Shown in pieces: positions 3,491-18,968 of a stretch of DNA of 64,000 bases; the stretch's first letter is position 1; every line of letters begins with the position of its first letter. The stretch covers positions 235,098-299,097 of the forward strand of contig JAGWKL010000001.1 in NCBI GenBank assembly GCA_028865345.1. Direction: 5' to 3'. The translations under genes and the position numbers were made by a program. The notes beneath the pieces were generated by a model. The model made no database searches. It saw nothing but the letters and a program-made list of their open reading frames with translations, and was not told the origin of the DNA. The DNA comes from Candidatus Omnitrophota bacterium (GTDB lineage: Bacteria; Omnitrophota; Gorgyraeia; Zapsychrales; Fredricksoniimonadaceae).

Positions 3491-6400
3491 TTATCCACCG
3501 TGCGCTGGTTTGGGTTTCATGACCATATAATAAATAACCGGTATGGCCGTACGTGACAAGAAGGTCGATGCGATCTCCCCTGCCATAAGTGACAATGCCA
3601 GGCCCTGGAAGATCGGGTCAAAAAGGATGACTGATGCCCCGACAAAGACCGCCATGGCCGTCAGCAGCATGGGCCTGAAACGCACCGCACCGGCGTCTAT
3701 CACCGCTTCTTCCAGGGACATCCCTTCCCTGAGACGCAACTGGATAAAATCCACCAGGATAATGGAATTCTGCACCACGATCCCTGCGCCCGCAATCATG
3801 CCTATCATGGAGGTGGCGGTAAAAAAGATCCCTGTCATCCAATGGGCCGGCAGGATCCCCACGAGCGTCAAGGGGATCGGCATCATGATGATCATCGGCA
3901 CTTTAAAGGACTTAAACCATCCCACAACCAGAACATAGATCAAGACCAGTACAATTGCAAAAGCAATGCCTAAGTCCCTGAAAACCTCATAGGTGATCTG
4001 CCACTCTCCGTCGAATTTCAAGGCCCAGTGATTTTGATTGGGCGGCATGCCGGTCCAATAGATCTTCAATGATTTCTGGCCTTCCGGATGCGACGGGAGA
4101 GGAAGTTTCTCGAAAGCCTTTTGCAAATCAAAAAGCACGTAGACAGGGCTTTCAAACGGCCCTGCCACATCGCCGAAAACATAACCGACCCTCATGAGGT
4201 TCTTATGAAAGATCGGTTTGGACTTAAGCCTGTCTTGTACCCTGACTAAGTCCTTAAGCGGTATAGGAATTCCGGTATTCGACAATAATGTCATCCCCAA
4301 AATACTGTTCAGGTCCCTGCGTTTATTTTCCGGCAGGCGCACGACGATTTCCACAGGTTCATATTCATTGGAAAGGTGCGCCAGGCCGACATCCCTGCCT
4401 GCCAAGGCCGTTGAAATGGTCGCAGCAATCGCATTGGGCGCAATACCGTTGAGACTGGCCTTTTGACGGTCAACGACCAACCGGAACAGTTTTTCATTGC
4501 CTGAGGGAGAAGGAGTAGTGATGTCCGTGACGCTGGGGTTTGATGACATCACCCCCTCAACCTGTTGGGCCAGCTTGTCGATCCCGGCCCTATTGGGACC
4601 GTAGATCTCCATGACGAGCGTGGATAATACCGGCGGGCCAGGCGGAACTTCAGCCACTTGGGACTGCCCGCCGTAGCGTGCAACAATTTCGTGGATCTTG
4701 GGGCGGACGGACTTGGCAATATCGTGGCTTTGCCGCCGCCGCTCGGCTTTAGGTAAAAGATTGACCTGCAGGTCCGCCTGGTTGGTGCCGTGGCGAAGAT
4801 AATAATGCCTGACGAGCCCGTTGAAATTATACGGCGCGCTCGTTCCCACATAAGCTTCGATGTTGTCCACCTCCGGGACTGTCTGTAAATACTTAGCGAT
4901 CTCTCCGATGACATCGTTTGTGGTTGCCAACGATGTCCCCTGCGGCATGTCCAGAACCACCTGAAACTCATTTTTATTGTCAAAGGGCAGCATTTTCACC
5001 TTCACCCATTTAAGAGGTATCAATGAAACAGAAAGCAACAAAAGAACGCTGATCACAATAAGAAAAACGGCGCGGACCCGGGAATTGTAAATTAACGGCT
5101 TCATGTAGGAACGGTAGACCCGGGTCAGGAAATCCTCCCGGCTGTCATGGCCTTTCATGTCCCCTTTTTCGAAGGCGCGCTTGAGGATAATGGTCGCGGC
5201 CCATGGTGTCGCCATAAAAGCCATCAGCGTGGAAAAGAAAATGGCGAGGCTTGATCCGATGGGGATAGGACGCATGTACGGGCCCATCAGCCCCCCGACA
5301 AAGGCCATGGGCAAAATGGCCGAGATGACCGTCAGGGCAGCCAGGATGAGCGGGCTTTGGACCTCATTGACAGCGCCGATGACAATATCCAAAAATTGAC
5401 GCCCCGCATTTTTCGCCAGACGCAGGTGCCTGACGATGTTTTCCACATTGACTATGGGGCCGTCGACAAGGATACCGATGGAAAAAATCAGTGCGAAAAG
5501 TGTTATTCTGTTGAGGGTAAAGCCGATCCAGTAAAAAGCAGCCAGGGTAAGGGACAACGTCAGAGGAATGGTCACCGCCACAATGCCCGCTTCCTTCCAT
5601 CCCAGGACCATGGCAATGATAAGGGCCACCCCTCCCACCGCCAGCCCCATATGGAAAAGAAGTTCGTTGGATTTGTCCGTCGCTGTTTTTCCATAGTTGC
5701 GCGTGACCTTCATGTGCACGTCCGATGGTATCAGGGCCCCTTTTAAAGTGTCCACTTTCTTGAGGACACGATCGCACAACCACGCGGCATTGGCGCCCTT
5801 CCTCTTGGATATGCTCAATGTCACTGCCTCAAAGGGCCCCTTAGACGGATATTCCCTTTGATCGCCGAAACGGATATTCACATCATGTTCCTGAGTATCG
5901 GGCCCGTCGACAATCCGGGCGACGTCTTTTAAATAAACGATACGCCCAACCGATGTGCCGACAACAAGATTTTCCAGGTCTGCTTTGGACGTGATAAATG
6001 AGTCAGCCTCGACGCCTATGACGTCAGGCGTTGTTTGCAGGTGTCCGGCCGGCATTTTGACGTTGGAAGACTCGATGAGCCGTTCAATGCTCAACGGGTC
6101 GATCAGATGCTCTGAAAGCTTGGCCCCATCAAGCAGGACCTGAAAGGTGCGCTTATGGCCGCCTATGATCCGGGTATCTGAAATATCCGGTATGGCGTTG
6201 ACCTCCTGCTGTATCGAGGCAACCACGCGGCGCAAAGTCTCCGTATTTTCCTTACCGGAATAAAAGGTCAGGGCCAGGATCGGCACATCATCGATGGAAT
6301 GGTATTTGATCAGGGGTTGTGATGCGCCGGGCGGCAAAAAGTCCTGGTTCGCAAAGACCTTCGTGTATAATTTCGTCAATGACTGCTCGACATCCTCCCC

Positions 6401-6715
6401 CACCTTGAAACGCACGACGATCAGCGCCCCATCGGAGCGGGCGGTCGAATAAATGTATTTGACACCGGGGATCTCCCACAGCTTGCGCTCCCCCACGTCG
6501 ACAATCCTCTGTTCCACCTCCTTGGGAGTGTCTGCCTGAAACCGCACAAAAATATCGAACATGGGAACGGATATCTGCGGCTCTTCTTCGCGCGGAAGAT
6601 TAAGCAAGGCCGTGACGCCTAAAAAAATCGCAAAGCCCAAAATCAAAGGCGTCACCTTGGACTTCACGAAGAAGGCGACTGTTTTACCGATCCAATTGAT
6701 GGAATTATTGTCCAT
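3491..6715 (-). CDS. RND superfamily efflux transporter permease (AcrB/CzcA-like, 12 TM with two large periplasmic loops)
   Basis: 1074 aa; '...GILVDGPIVNVENI...' TM4 motif region, duplicated 6-TM plus porter-domain architecture. Confidence 0.9.
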   Translation of the reverse strand: MDNNSINWIGKTVAFFVKSKVTPLILGFAIFLGVTALLNLPREEEPQISVPMFDIFVRFQADTPKEVEQRIVDVGERKLWEIPGVKYIYSTARSDGALIVVRFKVGEDVEQSLTKLYTKVFANQDFLPPGASQPLIKYHSIDDVPILALTFYSGKENTETLRRVVASIQQEVNAIPDISDTRIIGGHKRTFQVLLDGAKLSEHLIDPLSIERLIESSNVKMPAGHLQTTPDVIGVEADSFITSKADLENLVVGTSVGRIVYLKDVARIVDGPDTQEHDVNIRFGDQREYPSKGPFEAVTLSISKRKGANAAWLCDRVLKKVDTLKGALIPSDVHMKVTRNYGKTATDKSNELLFHMGLAVGGVALIIAMVLGWKEAGIVAVTIPLTLSLTLAAFYWIGFTLNRITLFALIFSIGILVDGPIVNVENIVRHLRLAKNAGRQFLDIVIGAVNEVQSPLILAALTVISAILPMAFVGGLMGPYMRPIPIGSSLAIFFSTLMAFMATPWAATIILKRAFEKGDMKGHDSREDFLTRVYRSYMKPLIYNSRVRAVFLIVISVLLLLSVSLIPLKWVKVKMLPFDNKNEFQVVLDMPQGTSLATTNDVIGEIAKYLQTVPEVDNIEAYVGTSAPYNFNGLVRHYYLRHGTNQADLQVNLLPKAERRRQSHDIAKSVRPKIHEIVARYGGQSQVAEVPPGPPVLSTLVMEIYGPNRAGIDKLAQQVEGVMSSNPSVTDITTPSPSGNEKLFRLVVDRQKASLNGIAPNAIAATISTALAGRDVGLAHLSNEYEPVEIVVRLPENKRRDLNSILGMTLLSNTGIPIPLKDLVRVQDRLKSKPIFHKNLMRVGYVFGDVAGPFESPVYVLFDLQKAFEKLPLPSHPEGQKSLKIYWTGMPPNQNHWALKFDGEWQITYEVFRDLGIAFAIVLVLIYVLVVGWFKSFKVPMIIMMPIPLTLVGILPAHWMTGIFFTATSMIGMIAGAGIVVQNSIILVDFIQLRLREGMSLEEAVIDAGAVRFRPMLLTAMAVFVGASVILFDPIFQGLALSLMAGEIASTFLSRTAIPVIYYMVMKPKPAHGG

Positions 6716-8072
6716 AAATGGCCTCTGCCGCCTCGGGCGTCAGTTGGCCCGCATAAAGTTTTAAGGTCAGCGCATTTTCACGACGGGCGGCTTCCAGACC
6801 CAACCAACGCTCTCGGGCGGCGACAACTTCCGAGCGGATCGAAAGCATCTGCCCGATCGAAGACCGGCCTTCCCTATATAAGGGCTCCAAAAGCTTTAAC
6901 GCTTGGCCCGCATCGGCACAGGCATTCCCGGCCAATCGAATGTTCGACCCCAAGGCCCGCAGGCGCCAATAAACGTCCGCCGCGTCACGGGCCGCCTGGT
7001 CCTTTTTTTCCTGATATGCGGCGGAAAGCTCCCTGACCTTCTCCTGGGCCATTTTGACCCGAGGGGCATGGCCTGGATCAAAGAGATCCATCCTGACTTT
7101 AAGGCCGAACATATAATTGCCGCCGCCGCTTGATCCGATACGATGGACGTCTTCGTCAGCGCCGCCAAAAGCAACCACTTTAGGAAGAACGCTTTTACTT
7201 TCCGCGGTCACTTCAACGCCGCCGGCTTCCAGGAGCCTGGCCATGGCTTTAATATCCGGCCTGTTGTTGATTGCTTGATCCATCCATTCTCCGACGCTTC
7301 CCGTGACCTCGATGGGTTTCGCAAAATCCATTTTCACAGCCACGGGCACGGCCGGATCCACGCCCCGCAACACATTAAAAACCAGGTTCAAGGCCGCGCG
7401 TTGAGCCGCGGTCTCGTTTTTCATCTGCAAAAGTTGTGTCTGGGTCAGGCGGGCTAAGTAAAAATCAGCTCCCAGCGCTTGTCCTGTGCGTCCCAAAGCC
7501 TCGGCGGCTGCCACATCCGCCCGCCCCCCGGAAGTTTGTTTCTCCAGAACATCAAGCAACGCGTCAGCTGCGGCCAGACGGCTGTAGACCTCCGAAGCCG
7601 CCATGATGGCTTCCATCCGGGTGAACCGGGCTTGGTATTGGGCTGATTCGGTCAGAATTCCTGCGGCTTTAATACGCGCTGCAGTTTGTGAAAAATCGAA
7701 CAACGTCCATTCGACGCCGGCCTGAGCGGAATCATTCGCCCACGCCGCAGGGCTGTTCAGGCGCTTTAATGCAAAATCTTCAGCGGTGAATTTATTCTCG
7801 CGCAGCAGGGCTCCAAAAACATACACGGGATCATTGCCATATTGAGATTCCACAGATGCCCAGAATTTAGGCATCCGGCTTGAGGCGGCCAGGGCCTTTT
7901 GGGCTATGGTCTTTTCGATAGACGCATGTTCTTTTTTTAACAAAGGATAATAGTTCAAAACCTGGGATAAATATTCTTTATAGGACACGAACCGGGGGCC
8001 GGGGGCCGGTTGGGATCGTCCTGGGCCTGAACAAATAACGAGACTGATGAGAATCAGCAATAAAACTCTCAC
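6705..8072 (-). CDS. TolC-family outer membrane efflux protein (OMF) with signal peptide
   Basis: 455 aa, cleavable leader, Ala/Leu/Gln/Arg-rich alpha-helical repeats; 11-nt overlap with the RND gene. Confidence 0.8.
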   Translation of the reverse strand: MRVLLLILISLVICSGPGRSQPAPGPRFVSYKEYLSQVLNYYPLLKKEHASIEKTIAQKALAASSRMPKFWASVESQYGNDPVYVFGALLRENKFTAEDFALKRLNSPAAWANDSAQAGVEWTLFDFSQTAARIKAAGILTESAQYQARFTRMEAIMAASEVYSRLAAADALLDVLEKQTSGGRADVAAAEALGRTGQALGADFYLARLTQTQLLQMKNETAAQRAALNLVFNVLRGVDPAVPVAVKMDFAKPIEVTGSVGEWMDQAINNRPDIKAMARLLEAGGVEVTAESKSVLPKVVAFGGADEDVHRIGSSGGGNYMFGLKVRMDLFDPGHAPRVKMAQEKVRELSAAYQEKKDQAARDAADVYWRLRALGSNIRLAGNACADAGQALKLLEPLYREGRSSIGQMLSIRSEVVAARERWLGLEAARRENALTLKLYAGQLTPEAAEAIYGQ

Positions 8073-8365
8073 AAAATTTCTCCCAATATTTTTATGATAC
8101 TCACAATGCGTTCGTCAGTCAGGTGATAACAGGCCTTGACTCCCTTCTTTTCAAAAGTCACAACCCCGGCCTGCCTCAAGGCGGCCAGGTGCTGAGAAAT
8201 AGTAGATTGCGGAAGCCCCAGCTTTTCGACCATCTTAGACACATGGCAACCGTATTGGGTGATCAACCCCTGAGCCATTTTAAGGCGCACCGGGTGCCCC
8301 AGTGCTTTGAGAAATGCGGCGGATTTCTCGTAATCCATATCAGACCCCTTTCCCATATCTATCAT
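8069..8365 (-). CDS. arsR: ArsR/SmtB family metalloregulatory transcriptional repressor
   Basis: 'LKALGHPVRLKMAQGL...LPQSTISQHLAALRQAGVV' winged-HTH signature; 4-nt overlap with OMF gene. Confidence 0.8.
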   Translation of the reverse strand: MIDMGKGSDMDYEKSAAFLKALGHPVRLKMAQGLITQYGCHVSKMVEKLGLPQSTISQHLAALRQAGVVTFEKKGVKACYHLTDERIVSIIKILGEIL

Positions 8366-8573: not shown

Positions 8574-9197
8574 TTACTCCTGAGGATTCAAATATTTAAA
8601 GGTAACTGCCGCCAGGGCGCCGCCCGCAAAGTTCCCGATCCAGAATATTAAAAGCATGGCCAGCTTATTTAAGCCCATAAGGGTCATGCCCAATGCCACC
8701 GCCGGGTTAAACGCCCCTCCGGAAATATTCCCGGCCGCATAGGCTGAAGCCATGACTGTAAAGCCGATGGCAAGCCCGTAAAACGAATTGCCCGCGGTGC
8801 CTTTGGAGGTCGCCACATTAAGCACGACAAAGGCCAGGGCAAAGGTAAAGATCAATTCCACCAAAAGCGCGTGGATCATGTTGGGCTGGGCCTCGATGAC
8901 CAGGCTCCCATGCTTCAAATAGCCGACCAGTAAAGCCGCAACCACGGCGGCGATAAACTGCGCCGTCCAATATCCCGGAACGTCCGTGGTATCGCATTTG
9001 CCTCTCATCCATACGGCGAGCGTCACCGCCGGATTATAATGCCCGCCGGAGATATGCCCGCCGGCATAAACCATCACCATCAGGATGGTGCCGATCGCCA
9101 GGGGCGCCATGGCGCCGGCGCCGATACCGACAACGCTTAAGCCAACCACAAAAACCAGGAAAAACGTCCCTATGAATTCCATGACGTATTTGTTCAT
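8574..9197 (-). CDS. MIP-family channel (aquaporin/aquaglyceroporin)
   Basis: Two NPA boxes ('GGHYNPAVT' and 'GGAFNPAVA'), six TM helices, 207 aa. Confidence 0.85.
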   Translation of the reverse strand: MNKYVMEFIGTFFLVFVVGLSVVGIGAGAMAPLAIGTILMVMVYAGGHISGGHYNPAVTLAVWMRGKCDTTDVPGYWTAQFIAAVVAALLVGYLKHGSLVIEAQPNMIHALLVELIFTFALAFVVLNVATSKGTAGNSFYGLAIGFTVMASAYAAGNISGGAFNPAVALGMTLMGLNKLAMLLIFWIGNFAGGALAAVTFKYLNPQE

Positions 9198-15671: not shown

Positions 15672-15866
15672 ATGAGCTTGGAAGAATTTGTCCATTTTCT
15701 CTGCCCTTACTGCAGCCAAACAAACCAACTTCCGGTGGACATCACCGCGGGAAACTCTCAGGAGATTGTCGTCGACTGCGAAGTCTGCTGTGCACCGGTC
15801 GTCCTGAATATCAGGTTGCGTGGCAATGAAATACTAACGGTTGAAGCAAGAAAAGAGAACGAATGA
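15672..15866 (+). CDS. CPXCG-motif cysteine-rich small protein (zinc-ribbon-like)
   Basis: 'CPYCSQ...DCEVCCAP' four-Cys arrangement in 64 aa. Confidence 0.55.
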   Translation: MSLEEFVHFLCPYCSQTNQLPVDITAGNSQEIVVDCEVCCAPVVLNIRLRGNEILTVEARKENE

Positions 15867-15906
15867 TGCCGATGGATTAAAAACGGCGGTTATGGTAGAT
15901 TAAAGT

Positions 15907-16284
15907 ATGTCTCAAATCATTTTGGTGGTGGATGATGACCGCAGCATCGTACACACCTTGAAATCGATCTTATTAAAAAACGGTTTCGAAGTCCTCACGG
16001 CCAATAACGGCGAAGAGGCCTTAAAATTGATCAAAACCAACCGGCCGGACATGGTCATTACCGATTTAATGATGCCGGTCATGGATGGATGGTATCTCAG
16101 CATGAACGTCCGCAGGGACCCGCGGTTTAAGAAGACCCCGATCATCGTCATCAGCGGGATATTAAACCCTGAAGCTGTGCAGCAGGACCCTGAAGCCTCG
16201 ACATTCTATGTGCCTAAACCCTTCGCTGCGACGGCGCTGATGGAAAAAATCAAAGAAATCTTCATCAGCCGTCGAAATCCTTAA
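15907..16284 (+). CDS. Single-domain CheY-like response regulator
   Basis: 'ILVVDDDRS...DMVITDLMMPVMDG...IIVISG...KPF'; paralog of the 48274..48663 gene. Confidence 0.8.
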   Translation: MSQIILVVDDDRSIVHTLKSILLKNGFEVLTANNGEEALKLIKTNRPDMVITDLMMPVMDGWYLSMNVRRDPRFKKTPIIVISGILNPEAVQQDPEASTFYVPKPFAATALMEKIKEIFISRRNP

Positions 16285-16687
16285 ATCTGCCGACGATCAT
16301 ATCCCTGACCCTGCGGAATTCTTCCAGAACGATATCGCTTTCTTCCTGCCCATGAGGCGGGTCCGGAAAAGGCCAATGCAGGACCCTGGTTGCGCCTGGA
16401 AATACCGGGCAGGATTCTTTGGCATTATCGCAAACCGTAAAGACATAATCCATCCGCCGGCCTTTGAACTCATCCACATGCTTTGAACGGTGCCCGGAAA
16501 TGTCAATGCCGATCTCCTTCATCACCCTGATGGCCATGGGATCGACCGCCGAAGGTTTAGTGCCGGCGCTAAATACTTCAAATTCCTCTCTCTTATAATG
16601 GCGCAAGACACCTTCGGCCATTTGAGAACGGCAGGAATTGCCCGTACACAAAATAAGGACTTTTTTCTTCATAGAGCTACCTTTCAC
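16265..16687 (-). CDS. arsC: Arsenate reductase, LMW-PTP/thioredoxin-coupled type
   Basis: '[18 protein letters not shown]' P-loop CX5R motif and downstream Cys pair. Confidence 0.85.
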
Positions 16688-17759
16688 AACAAAATTTTAT
16701 TTGAATATCGTTCCTGAGCATTTTTGCGGCATTGACCAGGGCTATCATCACCGGGACCTCGATCAAAGGCCCGATGACGGCTGCAAAAGCTGTTCCTGAA
16801 TTGATCCCGAAAACCGCCACTGCAACGGCGATAGCGAGTTCGAAGTTATTGCTTGCCGCCGTGAATGACAGCGTGACTGTTTTGCCGTAATCAGCGCCCG
16901 CCCTCCTGCCCATGGCAAACGAGACAAAAAACATGATCAGAAAATAGATCAAAAGCGGGATGGCGATCCGGACGACATCCATGGGGATCTTCACAATATA
17001 TTCACCCTTAAGAGAAAACATCACGAAAATGGTAAAAAGAAGGGCTGCCAACGTCATGGGGCTGATACGCGGGATGAACACCTTTTCATACCATTCCTTG
17101 CCTTTAAAGCGGAGCAAAAAAAACCTTGAGATCAGGCCGGCCGAAAAAGGAATGCCAAGATAGATTAAAACGCTTTTGGCGATCTGCATGATGGTGACAT
17201 TGACAACCGCTCCTTTAAGGCCGAAGAAGCCGGGAAGTATCGTGATGAAAACCCACGCGTATACTGAAAAGAACAGCACCTGAAAAACGGCATTAAACGC
17301 CACCAATCCCGCACAATACTCGGTGTCCCCATTGGCAAGGTCATTCCAAACAATGACCATGGCGATACACCGGGCCAAGCCGATCATGATCAATCCGACC
17401 ATATATTCGGGATATCCTCTTAAGAATGTCACGGCCAGAACAAACATCAATACCGGGCCGATGACCCAGTTCTGGATGAGAGAAAGAGCAAGGACCTTAT
17501 AATCCTTAAATACATCCCGAAGTTCCTCATATTTCACCTTGGCCAAAGGCGGGTACATCATGAGGATGAGGCCCACCGCTATCGGCACATTGGTCGTGCC
17601 TGATTGGAACCGGCCCCAGAATCCCGCAATGCCCGGAACACAATATCCCACGGCGACGCCCAGGGCCATGGCACCAAAAATCCACAGCGTCAAGAACCGG
17701 TCCAAAAAGGACAGCTTTTTCACATGCCCCTCCTTCGCGGGGGAGCTACGCGGCAACAT
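16677..17759 (-). CDS. acr3: ACR3-family arsenite efflux permease
   Basis: '[25 protein letters not shown]' canonical ACR3 N-terminus; about 10 TM; likely starts at the GTG/Val just before KKLSF. Confidence 0.85.
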
Positions 17760-18031
17760 CCCCCTTCTATTTTAATGGCCTTGATATTGACAAACCCGTC
17801 AGCGATCTTCTTATGCGCTGCCGCCAGTATCCTCGTAAAAGTCGGCCTGGAGACTTGCATGAGCCGCCCGGCCTGCGCATGCGTCAACTCTTCCAGGTCG
17901 GCCAAACGTACCGCTTCAAATTCATCGACCGTCAAACAAATGCCGTCGAGCTTGCCCACAGGCTTGTCCTGAGGGCGGAAACACCGCTCCCCCGGAAAAC
18001 ACTTAACCCATCTGATTTTCTTTGGTCTCAT
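17720..18031 (-). CDS. DUF134/UPF0251 family putative DNA-binding protein (sigma-70 region-4-like HTH)
   Basis: '[59 protein letters not shown]' matches the DUF134 pattern. Confidence 0.6.
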
Positions 18032-18176
18032 AGGCCCCCGTATTATGAACTATGGTTCATTATAGGTCAAACAAATTGTTCATGTCAAAATATTTATTTG
18101 CCCATGGAGTTCGGTGGATGAATTACCCTGCAGCAGCCTGACAGGGTGATTCATTTCAAATATTCTCCTCTCAGAT

Positions 18177-18968
18177 CTACGGGTAGGTTTGACCTGTAGG
18201 ACGGATCATGATTTCAGAAACATTAACATGCGGCGGCTGGGAGAGAAGCCAAACTATCCCATCGGCAATGGCCTGAGGTTCTAAAAGTTTTCCGAATTGA
18301 GCGACATTCTTGCCAAAGTTCTCTTGCGTATACCCGGCGACGTCCAGGAACCCGCTCAGGACGATCCCCGGCATGACTACAGAGACCCTGACACCTGCAG
18401 GGGCCACCTCACGGCGCAATCCTTCAGCAACGGCAGTAATGGCAAATTTACTGGAACCGTAAAAAGAACTGAATGGTGAAACATGCCGTCCCACGACCGA
18501 TCCGACAGCAACAATAGACCCGCGCTTTTCCTGGACCATATACTTTGCGGCGCGGCGCATCAGATGCGCGGCGCCAAGAACATTGATCCGGTAAATATCC
18601 TCCCAAACAGACTCATCACTGGTCATTAAACCTCCTGCAATGCCCCGCCCGGCGTTGACGATGACAAAATCATACTTACGGCCGCCTTCCTTCCAATCCA
18701 GCGTGTCCTTAAGAAGCCTCTCGATATCCGGGACCCTGCCGGCATCCCCGGGTACGACAAGGGCCTTCCCGCCGGCGGAAAGGATCTCCTTGGAAAGTTT
18801 ATCCAGACGGTCCTTGCGCCGGGCATTAATGACGACCGCCGCGCCATTTTGGGCCAATGCCAATGCCGTCGCCATCCCGATCCCGGAACTTGCGCCAGTA
18901 ATGACCGCCGTTTTCCCTGAAAACGGTTGAGTTGAAATAATTTTATCTTTTTTTATTCTTTGCATCAT
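18177..18968 (-). CDS. SDR-family short-chain dehydrogenase/reductase
   Basis: 'TGASSGIG' Rossmann motif, YxxxK catalytic region. Confidence 0.8.
   Translation of the reverse strand: MMQRIKKDKIISTQPFSGKTAVITGASSGIGMATALALAQNGAAVVINARRKDRLDKLSKEILSAGGKALVVPGDAGRVPDIERLLKDTLDWKEGGRKYDFVIVNAGRGIAGGLMTSDESVWEDIYRINVLGAAHLMRRAAKYMVQEKRGSIVAVGSVVGRHVSPFSSFYGSSKFAITAVAEGLRREVAPAGVRVSVVMPGIVLSGFLDVAGYTQENFGKNVAQFGKLLEPQAIADGIVWLLSQPPHVNVSEIMIRPTGQTYP

Follow-up and report, generated by a model that had tools for sequence, protein, structure and literature searches.

Arsenic resistance (ars) operons are described as being under the control of small repressors of the ArsR family; a 2025 paper on ars regulation considers ArsR-family repressors only, and novel cysteine placements within ArsR are still published as findings (PMC11868830). 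The As(III) sites of ArsR proteins are three-coordinate and have arisen at differing positions, with AfArsR (Cys95/96/102) and CgArsR (Cys15/16 + Cys55') using vicinal pairs in terminal segments (PMC11868830), while a further study reports that As(III) drives a disorder-to-order transition of the AfArsR binding region (PMC11212059). Here, we describe an ars cassette without ArsR from a Candidatus Omnitrophota bacterium (contig JAGWKL010000001.1, positions 235,098 to 299,097; this 64-kb stretch of DNA, analysed in full, is referred to as the window), which is headed instead by a 103-residue protein of the DUF134/UPF0251 family. Sequence and model evidence indicates that this protein is very probably the operon's DNA-binding regulator, and we put at roughly 0.74 the probability of the full model, in which it is an autoregulated repressor of DUF134-acr3-arsC released by trivalent arsenic. 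The apparent novelty lies in the proposed pairing of arsenic-dependent operon repression with a fold that is unrelated to ArsR and to which no function had been given. The predicted regulator is like the ArsR/SmtB proteins (R773 ArsR, AfArsR, CgArsR, SpArsR and ArArsR) in being the small, probably autoregulated product of the first ars gene with a predicted operator at the promoter, and in having a candidate three-cysteine sensory site with a vicinal Cys-Cys in a terminal segment, such as ArsR proteins use (PMC11868830).

The cassette consists of three minus-strand open reading frames (ORFs) running head to tail in the order DUF134, acr3 and arsC. The DUF134 protein (17720..18031) matches PF02001 over residues 2-91 with 71.8 bits (gathering cutoff 27), and is followed by a 348-residue ACR3 arsenite efflux permease (16677..17723; TIGR00832, 454 bits against a cutoff of 282.8) and a 135-residue ArsC arsenate reductase of the low-molecular-weight (LMW) phosphatase, probably thioredoxin-coupled, type (16265..16672; PF01451, 87 bits), which scores 132 bits with TIGR02691, under the equivalog cutoff of 174, but retains Cys9 in its CX5R loop as well as Cys81 and Cys88 as a pair. 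The likely ACR3 start is the GTG at 17723, preceded by an AGGAGG ribosome-binding site and overlapping the DUF134 stop by four nucleotides (GTGA), and the likely ArsC start is the ATG at 16672, 4 nt past the ACR3 stop. Three metagenome-assembled genomes (MAGs) labelled Candidatus Omnitrophica encode the identical protein, and their public gene calls give the same 348-residue ACR3 and the same arsC start. The GTGA overlap and the 4-nt gap point to one transcript with translational coupling, and the three genes are thus almost certainly co-transcribed and translationally coupled. The preliminary description of this DNA had reported three such ORFs on the minus strand with the DUF134 protein first, and these are present, as are all the protein strings it cited; its account of the gene boundaries stands as regards strand and overlap but not as regards the exact ACR3 and ArsC start codons, its longer ACR3 ORF from 17759 probably being over-extended. 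The 64-kb window contains no further ars gene and no second DUF134 gene.

Searches of the full-text literature for DUF134, UPF0251, PF02001 and COG1342, with most subscription journals outside their coverage, found no functional study, in agreement with the earlier remark that the family is uncharacterised. The window protein scores 59 bits with NCBIfam PRK04217, under the equivalog cutoff of 115, and belongs to a divergent DUF134 subfamily named by no curated NCBIfam model. An AlphaFold2 model (32 homologues) has a confident core at residues 30-88, comprising strand 30-33, helices 35-46, 51-57 and 62-79, and strand 85-88, with a recognition helix that begins Ser61-Arg62-Pro63; the N-terminal arm (5-27) and the tail (90-103) are disordered in the model, with a predicted local distance difference test score (pLDDT) of <50. 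The structural neighbours of the core are sigma region 4 domains, not winged helices, and the protein has weak matches to Sigma70_r4 and helix-turn-helix (HTH) profiles; the claim that a protein with a sigma-70 region-4-like HTH heads a cassette lacking arsR is borne out by profile and structure alike. At E <= 0.01 there is no match to PF01022 (HTH_5) or PF12840 (HTH_20). Unlike the winged-helix ArsR (PF01022), to which it has no detectable sequence similarity, the DUF134 protein consists of a sigma-70 region-4-like three-helix core with two short flanking strands, and its predicted operator is a short, perfect 6-4-6 palindrome. A sequence search of solved structures returned a DeoR HTH only (E = 7e-4), which suggests that no DUF134 structure exists; the sugar-binding effector domain that accompanies the DNA-binding domain of SorC/DeoR proteins is absent from the window protein. 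We also rejected a sigma-factor reading on fold, size and operator position: TIGR02937 reaches 18.2 bits against a cutoff of 42.9 and covers the region-4-like segment only, and in contrast to sigma-70/ECF proteins the window protein has 103 residues, no region 2, and a predicted binding site which, instead of being a -35 element, is palindromic and located at -10/+1.

The linkage of DUF134 to ars genes, which the preliminary description cautioned might be unique to the window genome, recurs widely. A protein search gave 2,481 relatives, the best 120 of which are 66-82% identical, ~100 residues long, and annotated no further than as 'DUF134 domain-containing protein' or 'predicted DNA-binding protein (UPF0251 family)'; three relatives on long contigs with unrelated flanks all lie directly upstream of ArsP_1, ACR3 or LMW-phosphatase genes. 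When GTDB r232 was scanned with a single genome for each species, at least 575 loci were confirmed, and the best 80, which were analysed, come chiefly from Omnitrophota MAGs, with a few labelled Elusimicrobia, Syntrophaceae, Deltaproteobacteria and others. ORFs in these related loci were called with a longest-ORF heuristic, the downstream proteins clustered, and representatives named by NCBIfam/Pfam. Same-strand ars genes follow directly downstream in 63 of the 71 species-representative loci with enough downstream DNA, and in several of the eight misses ars genes were still detected by tblastn. The downstream clusters comprise an ArsP_1 permease (PF03773, 262 bits), ArsM (PRK11873, 368 bits against 263), the ArsF family (NF040494, 106 bits against 60), the ArsG family (NF040495, 274 bits against 200), ACR3 (398 bits), an LMW-phosphatase-type ArsC and an ArsE-type thioredoxin (TIGR00412), usually laid out as DUF134-ArsP-(ArsM)-ArsF-ArsG-ACR3(-ArsC) with the DUF134 stop often overlapped by the next gene. 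An ArsR-family ORF was seen in a single one of the 80 genome loci, ~5 kb downstream of the DUF134 gene. Recurrence of the gene order in more than 100 loci places the arrangement far beyond chance.

This linkage is specific to the clade of DUF134 proteins whose core is followed by a Cys-Cys pair. We scanned metagenome contigs with five deep-branching Cys-Cys-type representatives as queries, yielding 80 loci that include both protein kinds. Among Cys-Cys-type proteins an ars gene lies within 300 nt downstream in 43 of 44 informative metagenome loci, the remaining one having ArsC at +664, against two of 23 for all other DUF134 proteins; both of the latter are decayed members of the same clade (one GGYC, one truncated), leaving 0/21 for truly generic DUF134 (Fisher p = 4e-14 for Cys-Cys type against others, shared ancestry being ignored). 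Generic DUF134/UPF0251 proteins (PF02001; PRK04217 'hypothetical protein') have the core domain and the basic N-terminal arm in common with the window protein. An exhaustive search reduced to 50%-identity representatives showed that their core ends in GKA(I/L)(K/R)IEGG, and that in place of Cys11 and the immediate Cys-Cys of the Gly-Gly-Cys-Cys end they carry Gly/Arg-rich tails, zinc ribbons or NifX-like Nitro_FeMo-Co domains, the NifX-like domains being fused or adjacent. A plasmid collection held generic DUF134 only, at <45% identity, with no cultured Cys-Cys-type carrier found there; a Citrobacter plasmid has a DUF134 and NifX-family pair in a sulfur-related cluster, without an ars link.

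A few loci depart from these patterns. In L018 (6303-6590) a 95-residue ORF resembling a GIY-YIG nuclease (by eye, no family search) directly follows DUF134 and replaces the ars genes; in L141 (1360-1629) the Cys-Cys end is absent (IEGKQ) and no ars gene follows; and in L140 the DUF134 protein is truncated at 31 residues, yet ArsP/ArsM follow. All three look like decayed or interrupted copies. Separately, a longer DUF134 variant with a Ser-Arg-Pro helix and a ATGAACATAGGTTCAT operator occurs in L089 (a Vicinamibacteraceae MAG) and P0154; it has no N-arm cysteines, its Cys-Cys is shifted into a C-terminal extension (RRCCRRH), and the gene after it, judged by eye with no family search, looks less like an ars gene than like a PLP-dependent enzyme of Cys/Met metabolism.

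The promoter of the cassette, located by a promoter scan, matches the consensus at 12 of 12 positions (TTGACA-18-TATAAT, 18088-18059), with the -35 hexamer at 18083..18088 and the -10 hexamer at 18059..18064, both on the minus strand. The last two bases of the -10 hexamer are the first two of a perfect 16-bp palindrome, ATGAAC-CATA-GTTCAT (18045..18060, minus strand), which we predict to be the operator; it extends to arms of 10 nt (TATAATGAAC/GTTCATAATA, 18041-18064, minus strand), the operator-bearing duplex sequence is TATAATGAACCATAGTTCATAATA, and a GGGGG ribosome-binding site for DUF134 can be read at 18035..18039 (minus strand). With their centres separated by 10 bp, or a single helical turn, the two half-sites would face the same side of the double helix, as is usual for operators of dimeric HTH repressors. 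A palindrome with this 6-4-6 layout occurs in ~79 of 83 loci, 12-24 nt before the start codon and next to or across a -10-like box, and a TTGACA-like box stands at the equivalent relative position in most related loci. Perfect copies of the palindrome number 61 in 723,550 nt of related loci, all at the DUF134 promoter and none elsewhere, against a chance expectation estimated at well below one. The exact ATGAAC-N4-GTTCAT sequence is found once in the 64-kb window, at the promoter. Other window sites have 1-2 mismatches and lie inside coding regions, and were rejected as further operator copies as their number is at chance level (5 found against 2.6 expected).

Two further elements lie in the same intergenic region. 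A lone ATGAAC half-site at 18078-18083 (minus strand) overlaps the -35 box (TTGACATGAAC), directly following its first five bases; it was considered as a second operator and taken as chance, having no partner arm and being absent from related loci. Between the upstream gene and the ars promoter, at 18118-18154, two 13-nt arms that are 92% complementary form an inverted repeat around an 11-nt loop; the arms begin ATGAAT / ATTCAT, one mismatch from the operator half-sites. Lacking a T-run, the repeat does not stand out as a terminator, and it may be either an auxiliary site or a chance occurrence.

The half-site sequence changes together with the recognition helix. We tabulated residues 61-63 (window numbering) against the upstream palindrome for all genome and metagenome loci with a readable helix motif and upstream DNA. 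Proteins with Ser-Arg-Pro, as in the window, go with ATGAAC and never with either of the other two types (both arms match in 74 loci, besides which there are one-arm variants), His-Arg-Ser with ATGCAC (26 of 27) and His-Gln-Ser with ATGCAT (7 of 7), while five Ser-Arg-Ser loci have mixed half-sites. Two Ser-Arg-Ser proteins, otherwise close to the window protein, have reached ATGCAC independently of the His-Arg-Ser clade. The change from Arg to Gln coincides with a change from G:C to A:T at half-site position 6, which fits known amino-acid/base preferences. This is the pattern expected if residues 61-63 contact the half-site bases, and we strongly infer that the DUF134 protein itself binds DNA and reads the predicted operator. 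Generic zinc-ribbon DUF134 genes (helix Ser-Arg-Gln/Pro, TFGR) have an upstream near-palindrome of their own, ATGAGCATATGCT(T/C)AT, which is related to the ars-type operator and is found within 75 nt upstream of the start in L153, L155, L156, L160, L164, L165, L166 and L169. Autoregulation would then be a trait of the whole family, and the comparison suggests that DUF134 proteins in general are autoregulatory and DNA-binding.

The window protein has cysteines at positions 11, 17, 32, 92 and 93. Those noted at the outset as conserved are so: an alignment of 32 close homologues shows no variation at Cys11, Cys17, Cys92 or Cys93, and Cys92-Cys93 is kept in 79 of 83 genome-scan proteins, 65 of which have all five of Cys11, Cys17, Cys22, Cys92 and Cys93. 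Cysteines of the N-terminal arm (11/17/22) occur in varied combinations, never fewer than one; some genome-scan proteins have no Cys11 but keep Cys17 and Cys22, others have Cys11 and Cys-Cys only, and the deep-branching representatives also keep Cys11 and Cys-Cys. The smallest set, Cys11 with Cys92 and Cys93, thus sets a minimum of three thiols. The candidate thiols Cys11/Cys17 and Cys92/Cys93 are specific to the clade and sit in the low-pLDDT segments, both of which are basic (N-arm MRPKKIRW) and so may also touch DNA. The antiparallel strands 30-33 and 85-88 adjoin the base of the N-arm (~29) and the start of the tail (~89), which makes an intramolecular Cys11/17 + Cys92/93 site geometrically plausible in the model. 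The layout is reminiscent of the S3 As(III) sites that ArsR proteins have evolved independently. The window protein has Asp22 (17966-17968) rather than Cys22, and this position follows the type of operon: where the protein has Cys22, the first of the ars genes is ArsP/ArsM/ArsF in 91 operons and ACR3/ArsC in 7, and without it the counts are 3 and 14 (Fisher p = 2e-10, phylogeny being ignored). Cys22 may mark organoarsenical as against inorganic-arsenic sensor subtypes.

These features can be assembled into a working model. The DUF134 protein, probably a dimer, would set one sigma-70 region-4-like HTH unit on each half-site of ATGAAC-N4-GTTCAT. Because this palindrome covers part of the -10 box as well as the predicted transcription start, RNA polymerase would be expected to be blocked at -10/+1 when the protein is bound. 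Trivalent arsenic would bind Cys92-Cys93 together with an N-arm cysteine (Cys11, possibly Cys17), tying the two flexible basic arms together and lowering the affinity for DNA, and release would derepress ACR3, for arsenite export, and ArsC, for arsenate reduction. The gene order with its translational coupling, its recurrence, the palindrome and its exclusive location, the match of helix to half-site and the conserved cysteines were all observed; that the protein dimerises, represses instead of activating, binds arsenic and is released in this way is inferred. The DUF134 repressor would then most likely be an ArsR in function on an unrelated fold, and the suggestion in the preliminary description that it is a candidate non-ArsR ars regulator gains support from the predicted operator, the helix covariation and the clade-specific linkage.

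Several points weigh against this model. The case for it is built on sequence comparison, and every carrier, in the best 80 genome loci and the 80 metagenome loci alike, is an uncultivated MAG or a metagenome contig. The gene calls in related loci rest on a crude heuristic, and the window ArsC scores lower than its NCBIfam equivalog cutoff. The association counts are not phylogenetically independent, and the helix-operator covariation represents perhaps 3-4 evolutionary events and should not be counted as 160 independent cases. Confidence in the model is low for the arms that bear the cysteines, so that their presumed proximity follows from strand order, and the window protein lacks the Cys22 present in most relatives. 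Finally, four or five cysteines equally fit an Fe-S cluster, zinc or a redox switch. The last point is the substance of an alternative in which DUF134 is indeed the DNA-binding regulator while its cysteines sense Fe-S, zinc or redox/thiol stress and ars expression is induced indirectly. Four to five conserved cysteines in flexible termini would suit such a sensor, other DUF134 proteins carry zinc ribbons or NifX-like FeMo-cofactor domains so that the family appears tied to metal/cluster chemistry, and the carriers are anaerobic, Fe-S sensors being common in anaerobes. We nevertheless regard it as unlikely: across very different layouts the genes linked to the Cys-Cys clade are almost all arsenic genes, its three-cysteine members (Cys11 + Cys-Cys) suit an AsS3 site and are one ligand short of the usual cluster, and the division of ArsP/ArsM-first from ACR3/ArsC-first operons by Cys22 suggests tuning to the kind of arsenical.

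The remaining alternatives would take operator control away from the DUF134 protein. If the palindrome were a hairpin in the 5'-leader RNA, or a site for another factor, DUF134 could be otherwise employed, for example as an ArsD-like arsenic chaperone. An RNA stem of 6 bp with a 4-nt loop is possible, and the common one-arm variant ATGAGC...GTTCAT would retain a G-U pair. However, the predicted transcription start falls inside the palindrome, so that an operator in DNA, bound by a dimer, is a better reading of it than a hairpin in RNA, and an Rfam scan of 15800-18400 gave no family at E <= 1. ArsD is, like the DUF134 protein, a small ars-operon protein with a vicinal cysteine pair, and binds As(III) through such pairs, but it has a thioredoxin-like fold and ArsA as its partner, in contrast to an HTH protein whose operator covaries with its helix. 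ArsA was not among the clustered downstream genes, no direct ArsA search having been made. The chaperone reading was rejected on fold, size and operator position, and promoter geometry, fold and covariation together make this whole alternative highly improbable. Even harder to credit is control of the acr3-arsC promoter by a distal ArsR with the DUF134 gene as a passenger. The only ArsR-family ORF of the window (8069-8338, minus strand; HTH_5, 36 bits) lies 7.9 kb beyond arsC, where the preliminary description had placed it, at the head of an efflux operon, and a MIP/aquaporin-type gene adjoins it. That ArsR has two cysteines only, with neither a CVC motif nor a terminal Cys-Cys, and heads its own OEP and AcrB-type RND efflux cluster (3491-8072, minus strand); moreover, in 79 of the 80 related DUF134-ars loci no ArsR was seen within ~6 kb, and the conserved element of the promoter covaries with the DUF134 helix and with nothing in ArsR. 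The MIP/aquaporin gene itself (8574-9197, minus strand) is immediately upstream of the ArsR gene; aquaglyceroporins are able to conduct arsenite.

If the DUF134 protein is the arsenic-responsive repressor proposed here, it would represent a second solution to arsenic sensing, in which a vicinal-cysteine sensor was reached independently, and would provide the first function for PF02001, among the oldest of the 'domains of unknown function'. It would also explain how arsenic detoxification is controlled in the candidate phylum Omnitrophota without a nearby ArsR; annotation pipelines that seek ArsR miss the regulator of such operons. A compact sensor of 100 residues with a 16-bp operator and apparently swappable specificity would be of use for arsenic biosensors. 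A broader reading, which we hold tentatively and at somewhat less than even odds, is that DUF134 proteins overall are a large family of one-component, autoregulated transcription factors in which a sigma-70 region-4-like core binds DNA by a simple code, residues 61-63 reading bases 4-6 of an ATGnnn half-site, and to which C-terminal sensor modules have been added, with two arsenic subtypes among them. The modules may be the bare Cys-Cys tail for arsenicals, zinc ribbons, and NifX-like cofactor-binding domains; the subtypes may be a five-cysteine form serving ArsP/ArsM/ArsFG (organoarsenicals) and a three- or four-cysteine form, as in the window, serving ACR3/ArsC (inorganic arsenic).

Some minor features of the cassette and its surroundings complete the description. 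No terminator-like site was found on the minus strand 3' of arsC, and arsC shares its last 20 nt (16265-16284) with a single-domain response-regulator gene that converges on it (15907-16284, plus strand), the two overlapping at their 3' ends. The ars promoter is preceded by a gene (18177-18968, minus strand) for a short-chain dehydrogenase, which matches NF038213 'SDR_TniO_fam' with 321 bits, against an equivalog cutoff of 300. The ACR3 protein itself ends in a vicinal cysteine pair (KFCCER, window 16680-16697, minus strand), and a terminal Cys-Cys is found in just 3 of 28 ACR3 proteins of related loci, among them those of L010 and L011.

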